Part shown: piece by piece, positions 6,052 to 10,097 of the stretch
How the letters are laid out: each line of letters starts with the position of its first letter
How positions within the stretch are numbered: position 1 is the stretch's first letter
Source: Candidatus Marinacidobacterales bacterium
GTDB taxonomy: Bacteria; Acidobacteriota; Vicinamibacteria; Marinacidobacterales; SMYC01
Direction: 5' to 3'
Assembly: GCA_965237955.1 (NCBI GenBank)
Contig: OZ250169.1
Span: 6,240,001 to 6,304,000, forward strand
Length of the DNA stretch: 64,000 bases
Notes under the pieces: generated by a model
What the model was told of the DNA's origin: nothing
The model's database searches: none
Seen by the model: the letters and a program-made list of their open reading frames with translations, nothing else
Position numbers and translations under genes: made by a program

Positions 6052-8662
6052 TCAATCGGCGGTGACTTCTGTCCCGTCCAGGTCGGGAAATTCGTAGTCC
6101 GGGTCGATCGCCTGCGCTTTCTCGAGTAGCGAGCTCGCACGAGTCGTCAGGCCCTCGCTTTCGTAGATGGCTCCGAGCATACCGAGGAACTCGACGTTGT
6201 TCGGCTCGAGCTCGGTTGCTTTCAGAAAGTTGTCGGCCGCCTCTTTGCGCCATTTCTTGTTCTGCAGGAGGGCGCGGCCGAGAAGTCCGTAGAACTCGGC
6301 GACCTGCTCGTCGACCTCGACGGCCCGTCGTCCGAGCTGGATCGCGTCCCAGTAGTCCGCTCGATCGTACGCGATCAACGCGCGATCGTACAGCTCGCGC
6401 GCATGGCGGCGTTTGTCAAAGGGCGCCGGGTCTCCACCATTCGACGACGCTGCCTGGTCGTTTGTCGGCGAAGACGCCCCGTTTTCTCGTTTTTTTTTCG
6501 CGGCAACGCTCTTCTCGAAATCGGTGACCGCTTCCGATGCTGAGGCACAGAGGTCCGAGAGCTTTTCTCGAAAGTCTTTGGCGGCGTTTGGGAACTTATC
6601 GGGATGGAACTTGGCGACGATCTTCAGATAGGCGCTCTTGCGTTTCCCTTCGGTCGCATCGGTCGAAAGCCCCAACAGAGCGGGATAGTCCTCGCTCTCG
6701 GCAAGCGCCAGCAGCCGATCGACTTCGGAGACGGTAGCCGCATCGGGTCCTTGGGGCGGCTTGGGCTTCGGCTTGGGCGGTGGCGGCGGCGGCTCGGGCA
6801 CGCGCGCGACCGGTTCCCTGGTGACGCCGCCGAGGCGGATCAGCCCTTTGCCCAGCAAGTCCATAAGCGCGCGAGCGGTGTCCGCATCCGCCATCGGGCT
6901 CACCGAGATGATGTCGTTCGGTCTGGAAGCACCGTCGATTCGCGACAGGAGGAAGCCCTCTTCGGGTGAGATCTGGACACCTTGGAGATCTCCAGAGAGA
7001 GTCGGAGACAAGTGAAGCACCTGCGATTCGTCCTTCAACGACTGGATTTCCTCGGCAGACGCAGCCGGTTTCTCCGGCTCGGTTTCAGCATCCTCGGGTT
7101 CTTCGGTTTTCGCCTCGGCCTCGGGCTCCTCGGACTTGGTTGCGGCCTCTGGTTCGTCGGCTTTCGCTTCCGTCTCCGACTCGTCAGACTCGGCCTCTGA
7201 CGCGGGTCGTTCCTCAGTGGCCTCATCAGCCTTGGCCTCGGCTTCAGGTTCGCCGGCGTTCTCTTCCGCTTCTGACTCGTGGGGCTCGTCTTCGACCGGA
7301 GCTTCGTCTGTCTTGGCTTCGGCCAGCGCCGGTTCCGCTTTCGCTTCGGCCTCCGACGCGTCAGACTTCGCGCTCGCCGCGGACTCTTCCTTCGCTACCT
7401 CATCGGGCTTCGCTTCAGAGTGGGCTTCAGGCTCAGCTGGGGTGGCGTCCTCCGAGGTCTCCTCGGATTTCTCTTCCTCCGGCGAAACTTCGGACTTCGC
7501 TTCGGCCGCGTTGTCTTCGCCCGTCGGAGACTCCTCCGGCTTTGCTTCCGCTGTCGGCACTTCTTTCGACTCCTCCGATACCGCTGTCGAGGACGATTCC
7601 TTTGCCTTCACTTCCTCGGGCGGGTCATCGGATTTGGCAGATTCAACGTCAGACGACGAGTCCGCTTTCGCTTCATCGGTGTCTACTGACTTGGCTTCTG
7701 GCTGGCTGGCCCCGGCGGCGACATCTGCAGCCTCAACGGCATCCTTCGAGATTGCGTCGAGCGCCGCCATCATCTCCTCACCGGACGCGTACCGCTTCTC
7801 CCGTTCTTTCTCCAACGAATGATGGAGAATCGGCTTCAACTCCGTCGGCAGGCCGAGCGTTCTCCAGTTCAACGGAAAAACGGGCTCGTCATTGATGATG
7901 CTCAGCAGCACACCGGTCAGACTCGGGCTTCGGAACGGCTTCTCGCCGACCGCCGCCTCGAACAGGATGCATCCCAGTGAAAACAGGGTCCGAGCGCGCG
8001 TCAACGTCTTCGCCTTTAGCTTGCTCGGGCGACATATAGTCCGGAGCACCGAGCACGCCTCCCGCCATCGTCAGGTTCGTGGACAGCTCTGATTTAGCAA
8101 TCCCAAAGTCCGTCACCCAGACATACATCGCGGGTGACACGAGGATATTGGCGGGCTTGACGTCGCGATGGACGACGTTGCGCCCATGTGCGTAGTCGAG
8201 GGCGCTCGATAGCTGCGACAGAATATTGATAGCGGTCGAGAGCGGAAGTCGCCCTTCTGACTCGATCAGCGATTCCAACGTGCGCCCCTCGATGAACTCC
8301 ATGATGATGTAGCCCCGGTTCGGAGTGGCGACGATGTCGTGGATAGTCACGATGTTGGGGTGTTGGAGTCGCGCCGCGATGCGGGCTTCGCGAACGAAAC
8401 GCTCCCGGAGCTCGTCCGGTCCCTGGTCGGCCAACGGCGTGTCCAGCCGTACGCACTTCACCGCCACGGGTCGGTCCAAGACCGTATCGAGAGCTTTGTA
8501 AACTGCTCCGATCGCGCTCGTCGAGAGACGGTCTACGATGTGGTAGCGCCCGCCTGGAATCTGATCCGAATATTCACCTTGCTCGGCATGTCCGGAGTTC
8601 TCGGCCTCGGTCGCTTGCTCGAAAGCGGACGAGGCCTGTGGGGTGTCTTCCTGTACGTCCAT
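6052..8662 (-). CDS. Ser/Thr kinase + acidic disordered linker + winged-helix-like segment + J-domain + TPR, split by a 1-nt insertion at ~7986-7988
   Basis: VAVK, HRDVKPAN, DFG and YMSPE in the 7889..8821 frame; removing one C from GACCCTG restores DARSDLFSLGCILFE and joins the 6052..8049 frame, which has FHPDKF and TPRs. Confidence 0.8.
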
Positions 8663-8674
8663 GCCCTTCGACAG

Positions 8675-8689
8675 GCAAGAAACGTGCCG
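8675..8689 (-). promoter_or_regulatory. sigma54 (-24/-12) promoter of the kinase gene
   Basis: Minus strand CGGCACGTTTCTTGC with exact GG-N10-GC spacing; predicted +1 is about 1 nt before ATG 8662. Confidence 0.65.
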
Positions 8690-8820
8690 AACGGACGCCA
8701 TGCAGGCAGGTGAGGAACACGTTCCGAATGAACCACTTGCAGCTTTACGGGCAGCGCGCCCCGGGGCAAAGCGAAGGTACGTCACCCGCTGGGGATTTCC
8801 CCACAGCGCGATACGGTTCA

Positions 8821-8908
8821 CATCAGCCTTCAGCTTCCAGTCACCAGCTGCCGGCTGCCGTCAGCTGTGCGCGGAAGAAGGACCGAGCTGAAAGCAGCTG
8901 GAAGCTGG
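8821..8908. repeat. Degenerate heptamer (CAGCTKC-like) arrays forming an inverted repeat
   Basis: catcagc cttcagc ttccagt caccagc tgccggc ... gagctgaaagcagctggaagctgg. Confidence 0.55.
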
Positions 8909-8924
8909 TTTGGCCCGAATGCCT

Positions 8925-9974
8925 CTAATTCCCCAGCTCCTCCTCGATGATCGACTTGAACGCATCGAACGGCTGCGCGCCGGACAGGAACCGACCGTTG
9001 ATGAAAAAGGCCGGAGTTGCGTTCACACCGAGCTTGTTCCCTCCGGTGTAGTCGTCTTGAACGACCTTTCGGAACTCACCGGAGTCGAAGCACTGGTTGA
9101 ACGAGGTGGTATCGAGACCCAAGTCGGCTGCGAACTGCTTCAAGTTCGACTCCGCGAGCGATCGCTGGTTCTCGAAAATCTTGTCGTGGTATTCCCAGAA
9201 CTTTCCTTGCTCGTGAGCGCACAGCGCAGCCTCGGCGGCCGGTGCTGCCTGCGGATGATTGGGGAGCGGATAGTCGCGATAGACCAGCCGAACTTTGTCA
9301 CCGTAGGTGGCTTCGACTTGCTGAAGGGTCGGACCGACCCTTGCGCAGAAGGGTCACTGAAAATCCGAATACTCGACGATGGTGATCTCGGCGTCCTCCG
9401 GTCCTCGAATGCGCTCGTTGCTCACCACAACGATGGGCACCCGCGGCGCCTCGAGAGCGATCGCGACGTTGGCGCCGGCACGCAGCCCGTCGATGAACGC
9501 TTGCCGCGCAGCATGCTCGTTGCGGGTTACCATGAACTCGCGAATTTGACCACTCATCTGCTCGAGCGTCTGGCCCCCGAAGCGAGCGCGATTCTGCTCG
9601 TAAAACGCTTGCACGGCGGCTTCGGCAACCGGCGGGACCTGCGCCGCGATTTCCTGGGCAACGAGCTCGTCCTGGGTGATCCCGCGAGCGGCTGCTTCCT
9701 CACTCAAGAGCAGTTCGGCAACGAGCCCGCCGAGCACCTCACGGCGGGCGTTGTAGAGCTCTTGGAACACCTTCATGTTCGTTTCGAGCAGTTTTTGGTC
9801 TACGTCCCCGAGGGTGATGGTGCTCTCGCCGATGGTGGCGACCACGGTTTCATCGGACGGCGGGTTGCCTTTGGCCTGAGCTTGTTGGGATTGTGACCCC
9901 GTGCCACAAGCAACGGCGAGCAGAAGTAAGCCGAGAGCGACGATTGCCCCATGGCGGCGGAAATTCAACTCCAT
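8925..9974 (-). CDS. DsbA/thioredoxin-fold lipoprotein, predicted selenoprotein (UxxC; Sec codon 9354-9356), 349 aa
   Basis: ORF 9354..9974 ends EYSDFQ-TGA; the same frame continues PFCARVGPTL...RDYPLPNHPQA...ATPAFFING to 8925; lipobox LAVAC. Confidence 0.88.
9319..9347 (-). promoter_or_regulatory. Bacterial SECIS-like stem-loop just 3' of the in-frame UGA
   Basis: UGC-GC-AAGGGUCG-GUC-CGACCCUU-CA-GCA; perfect 8-bp upper stem; the loop starts with GU, 19 nt after the UGA. Confidence 0.78.
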
Positions 9975-10030
9975 TGGTCAGTCCCCTTCCACAACATCTC
10001 AGACTAGCACAACTTCGCCGTGGATCTGGT

Positions 10031-10062
10031 CGTGCCCGTGCCCGTGTGCGTGCCCGTGCCCG
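10031..10062. repeat. Hexamer tandem repeat (CGTGCC)x5
   Basis: cgtgcc cgtgcc cgtgtg cgtgcc cgtgcc cg, intergenic. Confidence 0.8.
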
Positions 10063-10097
10063 ATCTTTTCCTACAACGTCACCCGAAGACTCGAAGC

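Follow-up and report, generated by a model that had tools for sequence, protein, structure and literature searches.

A mis-annotated selenoprotein gene of Candidatus Marinacidobacterales, predicted to encode a DsbA-like lipoprotein with a SurA/PEB4-type chaperone domain

An in-frame UGA codon at a DsbA-type active site

The DNA analyzed in this study (hereafter the window; 64,000 nt of contig OZ250169.1 of a Candidatus Marinacidobacterales bacterium) contains a gene whose reading frame is interrupted by a TGA codon within the active-site motif of a DsbA-like protein. The locus raises the question of whether this codon is a genuine stop or is read as selenocysteine (Sec) and, in the latter case, what the function of the complete protein may be.

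Translation of the minus strand between positions 8925 and 9974 (genetic code table 11) gave 206 aa, the TGA, a further 142 aa and a TAG. The sequence around the interruption reads EYSDFQ*PFC and, with TGA decoded as U, the active site becomes U-P-F-C (Table 1). The original prediction had described a gene split by the ORF caller, with the UGA exactly at the first Cys of EYSDFQ-[C]-PFC, followed by 142 open codons of thioredoxin-fold sequence including an ATP motif. All of this was confirmed, on the minus strand (the prediction had named none): the ORF lister yielded two pieces (9354..9974, 206 aa, and 8925..9143, 72 aa), the UGA is codon 207, and the frame beyond it carries A319-T320-P321 within a Thioredoxin_4 match that extends across the TGA. 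The corresponding protein database entry (P0029) is the 206-aa truncation; its relatives P0042 and P0098 end at the same residue, and all four members of the P0098 cluster are 209 aa long. A plus-strand reading (antisense shadow ORF, 8910-9896) was rejected, there being nothing else that backs this ORF.

Table 1. Features of the selenoprotein gene and its product (positions are those of the window).
Feature	Position	Strand	Details
Purine-rich RBS-like stretch GGAAGGGGA, 7 nt 5′ of the ATG	9982..9990	minus	Sequence; putative function
Selenoprotein CDS, 349 aa with UGA as Sec207	8925..9974	minus	ATG 9974, TAG 8927-8925
Signal peptide (residues 1-22) and lipobox Cys23	9906..9974	minus	Lipobox pattern LAVA-C23
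SurA/PEB4/HP0175-type N+C chaperone domain without PPIase, residues ~41-177	9444..9854	minus	Profile match and helical model
DsbA-type thioredoxin domain (Thioredoxin_4, residues 186-345)	8940..9419	minus	Pfam match across the TGA, E 1.4e-34
In-frame UGA at the first position of U-P-F-C, predicted to be Sec207	9354..9356	minus	TGA = codon 207
C210 of U-P-F-C	9347-9345	minus	
SECIS upper stem-loop AAGGGUCG-GUC-CGACCCUU	9324..9342 (loop 9334-9332)	minus	Folding and comparison
Cys252 and Cys295 in helical insert	9090..9221	minus	Invariant in 31/31 rows
cis-Pro loop A319-T320-P321	9012..9020	minus	T320 and P321 invariant; cis geometry predicted from the fold

A short-read contig of run X2, which may be the source sample, covers positions 8898-9464 with zero differences, the TGA included, and there is no change at 9354-9356 among the rows listed for four runs. 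Metatranscriptome run X15 contains two contigs identical to the gene (8940-9144 and 9803-9960); since neither bridges the UGA, and DNA carry-over is possible, they were not taken as evidence of transcription. A scan for promoters and terminators detected no promoters and two terminators (1.7 expected), none of the latter on the strand of the gene.

The genome, of 8.13 Mb, is 98% complete with 6% contamination and carries selA, selB, selD and a tRNA-Sec gene (selC; anticodon TCA), all scoring above curated cut-offs. Orthologs detected at E ≤ 1e-30 in 16 of 18 genomes of the same family each contain one TGA, in the same column in all 16 cases, followed by 141-150 open codons. They share 53-66% aa sequence identity, or 62-78% within the catalytic domain. 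The two family genomes in which no ortholog was found are 75% and 83% complete. Orthologs from other families lack the stop, and the 13 that were fetched carry Cys. The TGA is aligned with a conserved catalytic Cys, and this column shows TGA/Cys interchange. Among named loci (the best 80 of 584 matches), TGA forms were identified in five: three of Planctomycetota, one of Vicinamibacterales and one of Myxococcota; this is an undercount, because only the best 80 matches were kept and one search pattern demanded Cys. The selB gene is present in all five genomes of these named loci, as well as in all 18 family genomes. One ortholog (L047, from an 84% complete genome) reads U-P-D-G, the resolving Cys being absent.

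A SECIS hairpin tied to the UGA codon

The UGA is followed by a hairpin of 8 bp with a 3-nt GUC loop. Its stem begins 12 nt and its loop 19 nt past the UGA, and a weaker lower stem is predicted out to about 9351/9311. According to the Fig. 2 legend of PMC13188914, the bacterial SECIS consensus comprises a loop of 3-9 nt starting with G[G/U], an upper stem of 4-16 bp, a spacing of 16-37 nt and a minimum free energy (MFE) of -7.5 or below. The hairpin conforms to all four criteria published there, which bears out the GU-starting loop at SECIS distance that had been predicted. The folding energy is -10.7 kcal/mol for the upper stem and -17.1 kcal/mol for the 44 nt past the UGA (z -2.68). Given this z value, and the fact that 6 of 200 shuffled sequences folded as well as the native 44 nt, the hairpin by itself exceeds chance only modestly, and the strong evidence comes from comparison.

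When hairpins were called by rule (an upper stem of -7.5 kcal/mol or lower, a loop starting with G[G/U], and a distance of 16-37 nt), 26 of the 32 TGA domains qualified, as did 2 of the 124 Cys domains of all architectures and 90 of 3000 TGAs taken at random from genomic sequence. Of the six TGA domains that failed, five represent a second type of Sec-DsbA, whose hairpin is weaker, and the remaining one scored -7.4. In domains where the peptide V-G-P comes next, it is encoded by GTC GGT CCG in 26 of 27 TGA cases versus none of three Cys cases. Synonymous positions within the hairpin are almost frozen: in 21 Sec orthologs, the four-fold sites of codons +6 to +9 have entropies of 0, 0.28, 0 and 0.34 bit, against a mean of 1.46 bit for the other 74 four-fold sites, of which one is at ≤ 0.3; as these sequences are related by descent, the P value of this contrast is too strong. 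On 23 distinct sequences, 90.8% of the cells of the stem are paired, compared with 20-59% in slid control structures. Covariation is present to a limited extent: three of the eight pairs changed on both sides, in only five cells and among kin that are not independent, and the inner pairs are invariant. In two Planctomycetota MAGs (L062 and L064) a tandem pair occurs in which the first copy has Sec and the SECIS, and the second has Cys and no hairpin.

An alternative hairpin that would bury the UGA (GACCCUU/AAGGGUC) was rejected; it is not the MFE fold and needs a CCC codon present in 1 of 21 orthologs. A Cys-type DsbA paralog (L028; G000:C1:1499327, plus strand) has a hairpin of -19.6 with a CGAA loop 19 nt past its Cys codon. 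This loop does not fit the G[G/U] pattern, and the hairpin is either a relic SECIS or a product of chance.

The sequence-based checks proposed with the original prediction were positive: the Sec genes are all there, Cys and UGA interchange at the same column among homologs, and conservation of the hairpin, including some covariation, is confined to the TGA forms. Neither of the two observations named as grounds for its rejection (a lack of Sec machinery, or relatives that all carry TGC/TGT without a hairpin) was made. We are almost certain that the UGA of this gene is read as Sec207, and hold with the same high confidence that SelB would bind the GUC loop and bring Sec-tRNA, so that the ribosome reads through to the TAG. 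The opposite explanation is that the UGA is a real stop, in a pseudogene or through an assembly error, and that the gene yields a chaperone-domain lipoprotein of 206 aa at most. It can point to the 206-aa form stored in databases, a real frameshift in the neighbouring kinase gene of the same genome, and the two of 20 read-through candidates elsewhere in the genome that look false. It is nevertheless very improbable in view of (i) the identical TGA in all 16 orthologs, with 141-150 open codons beyond, (ii) the 62-78% identity of their catalytic domains, (iii) the linkage of the hairpin to the TGA and its frozen synonymous sites, and (iv) the full Sec machinery of the genome and the TGA in the short-read contig.

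Domain architecture and related proteins

The N-terminus carries a signal of basic and then hydrophobic character, ahead of a lipobox recognized with a PROSITE-type pattern. The lipobox is present in all nine same-family Sec sequences, in agreement with the predicted lipoprotein nature of the protein, and in 19 of 31 rows overall. It is missing from both Sec forms of Planctomycetota; on this distribution, export seems to be conserved and lipid anchoring would be lineage-specific.

The chaperone-like N-domain that had been proposed is homologous to SurA/PEB4-type chaperone domains. Pfam SurA_N_3 matches the N-terminal part of the protein and was found in 28 of 34 N-domains. A profile built from these 34 domains matches HP0175 (E 1.6e-9), LIC12922 and PEB4 (E 1.4e-5), and PrsA at 0.17. 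In HP0175 it aligns with residues 43-152 and then directly with 260-297, the latter stretch being weak alone (i-E about 0.9); residues 153-259 are skipped. No match to a rotamase (parvulin PPIase) domain was found on the window protein. According to the description of HP0175 in PMC12428200, domain 1 (residues 54-152 and 261-296) provides the chaperone and dimer interface, and the parvulin domain spans residues 157-254. As shown by homology, the N-domain corresponds to the chaperone/dimerisation N+C domain of HP0175/PEB4 from which the parvulin domain was removed, with the two halves joined directly. An AlphaFold2 model (Cys for Sec; pLDDT 87, pTM 0.75) predicts that the chain up to residue 39 is a disordered tether, that a helical domain (pLDDT 81-96) follows as far as about residue 170 and that a DsbA fold comes last. 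A single-sequence fold of the N-domain (pLDDT 55) was set aside.

The catalytic domain also matches DSBA (PF01323) above the cut-off (86.7 versus 25.6 bits). The cis-Pro motif of 31 Sec domains is GTP in 16, ATP in 11 and STP in four. Cys252 and Cys295 likely form a second, structural disulfide, a pairing that we presume from class-II DsbA proteins. The nearest matches of this domain, by sequence and fold, are DsbA/TsdA of C. diphtheriae (4PWP, 4PWO, 7UNN), CcScsC, Wolbachia alpha-DsbA1, 3GYK and BdbD.

This is not a new kind of system. UxxC selenoproteins termed DsbA-like (COG2761) and DsbG-like (COG1651) were introduced in 2005 (PMC1088965) and appear again in the lists of PMC1794560 and PMC2398784. 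Table 1 of PMC13188914 includes DsbA-like form 1 and DsbG-like (NF041057) among high-confidence predictions, and this 2026 review describes both families as predicted only, their function being largely uncharacterised. Our literature search retrieved no paper, and no row of a selenoprotein catalogue, describing a SurA-N/DsbA selenoprotein, which may be included among BSepDB entries and supplements; the text of the BSepDB paper, as distinct from these, does not name DsbA (PMC13326102).

The best NCBIfam match of the window protein is NF041057 (Rcas_1661 family thioredoxin-like (seleno)lipoprotein; E 1.5e-36), which is likewise a lipoprotein with UxxC, one Sec and a Thioredoxin_4/DsbA-type fold. 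However, the score (126.2 bits) is under the curated cut-off of 190, and for this reason the protein was not filed under NF041057; only residues 189-345 are covered, and the model (247 positions) does not match the 140-residue chaperone domain. FrnE, which we took as an example of COG2761, the founding family of DsbA-like form 1, matches the window protein weakly (E 1.4e-4). With DsbA-like form 1, as characterized in Table 1 of PMC13188914, the protein shares PF01323, UxxC, one Sec and a SECIS within the CDS.

CcScsC (7RGV), PmScsC (4XVW), Wolbachia alpha-DsbA2 (6EEZ) and E. coli DsbC resemble the window protein in having a DsbA-type catalytic domain, a helical N-terminal extension and the T-cisP motif, but they contain Cys, G-T-P and stems of 50-60 residues (87 in DsbC) in place of the predicted Sec, A-T-P and a SurA/PEB4-type domain of ~140 residues. 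HP0175, PEB4 (Cj0596) and PrsA (the last only at 0.17) possess a homologous N+C chaperone domain carrying a parvulin PPIase insert, whereas the window protein lacks the insert and has a DsbA domain after the chaperone domain. The same architecture is seen in Acidobacteriota, Myxococcota, Bdellovibrionota and Planctomycetota, in Cys-type SurA-N + DsbA proteins that are up to 58% identical and differ by TGC/TGT at the Sec site; 122 of the 124 Cys domains, whatever their architecture, had no hairpin.

The occurrence of Cys versus Sec is not explained by missing Sec machinery, as selB is present in 57 of 61 relatives and in three of five genomes with Cys forms. A quick tree of 124 domains, from which 49 of the 156 locus domains were omitted and in which 17 proteins from databases were included, requires 12 changes between Sec and Cys, four or more of which are forced by strong branches. 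These changes, together with the almost identical SECIS core in three phyla, would fit a single ancient Sec form that repeatedly reverted or was transferred.

Three further Sec-DsbA arrangements were observed. A Myxococcota MAG whose genome has selB contains a single ORF (L113:3866-6500, plus strand) with four tandem DsbA domains, each with a UGA, U-P-[FY]-C and the same SECIS; the 2026 review mentions no more than 2-3 Sec residues per protein (PMC13188914). The second Sec-DsbA type (L163-L167, in G014 and G010) has a coiled-coil N-terminus, the motif U-P-[FY]-C-SRHVRE and a different, weaker hairpin; its copies are near-identical, and G014 is 7% contaminated. A third, short Sec-DsbA (L162) has the standard hairpin.

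Genomic context and possible function

Across 10 loci of the same family, nine have kept the downstream kinase gene, eight the upstream LOG-family gene and seven the alkaline phosphatase gene; in none of five loci from other families are these neighbours syntenic. The selenoprotein gene is a core chromosomal gene with no obvious client and no sel genes nearby. The idea of a dedicated client or operon was rejected, the family-conserved neighbours being functionally unrelated. A GTGCCC-type short repeat (window 10030-10065) lies between the alkaline phosphatase and selenoprotein genes and draws many unrelated contigs. On the other side (6052-8821, minus strand), a Ser/Thr kinase ORF and a DnaJ-TPR ORF constitute one gene split by a 1-nt insertion near 7986; both parts are in one frame in all eight relatives in which both were matched. 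This looks like a strain-level frameshift and not an assembly error, because contigs of X1 and X2 have the extra base and those of X3 and X4 do not.

From the rest of this selenoprotein-rich genome, 20 UGA read-through candidates were picked by hand. Fifteen of them show either a Pfam domain that extends across the UGA or a redox motif that fits (OsmC, deiodinase-like, DUF3179, two FdhA, four Prx/AhpC, redoxin, rhodanese, AhpD/CMD, DsrE, arsenite-methyltransferase-like and FG-GAP). Of the other five, three have no Pfam match (one is ArsC-like by NCBIfam) and two look false. An FG-GAP + ASPIC/UnbV + redoxin protein (L145; G000:C1:5941982-5943946, plus strand) is encoded by a frame that includes a TGA (KDT-U-SLFWR) and a hairpin of 8 bp whose loop is GUC; this TGA occupies the same column in 12 of 12 family matches, and one TGA is present in 21 of 21 matches of the order. 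This type was not found in the table of PMC13188914, and our literature search found no paper on it. In four genomes of family f2 (G019, G021, G025 and G033), selB is arranged head-to-head with a short, stop-free DsbA-type gene, at a distance of about 200 nt. In addition, the genome of the window (G000) contains selD inside a 750-aa open frame without a stop (L014; G000:C1:4040942-4041856, minus strand), which we take to be, probably, a Cys-type Ndh-SelD fusion as described in PMC2398784. A near-identical short element occurs in G000 at no fewer than 17 places (e.g. C1:6232998, minus strand, and 808423, plus strand) and a second repeated element at about seven; both are probably mobile elements.

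With regard to function, we lean towards a membrane-tethered, DsbD-fed, chaperone-coupled disulfide isomerase/reductase. After removal of the signal peptide, Cys23 would very probably be lipidated, leaving the protein tethered outside the cytoplasmic membrane. The steps that follow are somewhat favoured but considerably less secure: the chaperone domain may bind unfolded clients and probably dimerise as in HP0175/PEB4, pairing two catalytic domains (cf. DsbC, ScsC and alpha-DsbA2); the low-pKa selenolate would attack mispaired disulfides, with C210 as the resolving residue, while DsbD would keep the enzyme reduced and a VKOR-DsbA fusion supply oxidation. The genome encodes one DsbD (582 aa, with a C-terminal WCKNC domain), one VKOR-DsbA fusion and two further Cys DsbA paralogs; a search of the genome for DsbB found none. 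The isomerase/reductase reading is favoured on the basis of the long N-domain, the dimerising family to which this domain belongs, the lowering of pKa and potential by Se, and the separate oxidative route. An N-terminal oligomerisation extension of at least 50 residues is given in PMC6450060 as the best discriminator of DsbA-like isomerases; in the window protein the N-terminal extension covers about 160 residues past Cys23. The values in PMC10096412 place the pKa of Sec at about 5.2 and Se-Se potentials below S-S potentials, the latter being for Se-Se and not Se-S.

Several observations count against an isomerase. All five isomerases treated in PMC6450060 have G-T-P, as opposed to A-T-P in the window protein, the residue at +2 is Phe and not Tyr or His, the best structural matches are mixed, with DsbA-type oxidases ranking beside CcScsC, and the SurA-like relative Cj1289 is described as a monomer (PMC12428200). 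ScsC proteins are noted in PMC11634996 as both oxidases and reductases in vivo.

The main rival, which we consider possible but rather doubtful, is a DsbA-type dithiol oxidase: its chaperone domain would hold nascent exports, and its selenenylsulfide, handed on as a disulfide, would be restored by the VKOR-DsbA fusion or O2. The top sequence and fold matches, which include C. diphtheriae DsbA/TsdA, Wolbachia alpha-DsbA1 and BdbD, would be consistent with such an enzyme, as would A-T-P in place of G-T-P and a genome with VKOR in which DsbB was not found. On the other hand, an N-terminal domain of this length is a mark of isomerases by the discriminator of PMC6450060, the lowering of the redox potential by Se, as given in PMC10096412, disfavours an oxidant, and the VKOR protein has a DsbA domain of its own. 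A role in envelope redox defence (sulfenic acid repair, or peroxide/metal scavenging, as in DsbG or ScsC) with little general folding is improbable: the Se-rich genome with several Sec peroxiredoxins and redoxins, the ScsC-type fold neighbours and the "DsbG-like" NF041057 as the nearest selenoprotein model are in its favour, but the conserved neighbourhood is without copper or stress genes, and the PEB4-type domain points to protein clients.

More tentatively than the oxidase reading, the protein could be a DsbC analogue assembled from SurA parts, that is, a domain-swapped dimer with a PEB4-type cradle in which Sec-armed DsbA domains replace the PPIase domains, acting as an envelope seleno-isomerase. 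Because the UGA sits just past a complete chaperone domain, Se shortage would, on this proposal, switch the gene to a stable 206-aa chaperone-only lipoprotein.

In conclusion, the locus is a real, well-supported selenoprotein gene of known kind, mis-annotated in databases, and its analysis corrects the annotation of a core, syntenic, family-wide gene that is stored as a fragment of 206-209 aa minus its catalytic domain. Its fresh aspects are the reading of the N-domain as a putative PEB4/HP0175 cradle that lacks the PPIase, the adjacent Sec and Cys copies, and the relative with four Sec residues. Sec and Cys versions of what is predicted to be one exported enzyme with a DsbA fold occur naturally, in two genomes side by side, and may serve as a test system for the role of selenium in envelope disulfide chemistry.
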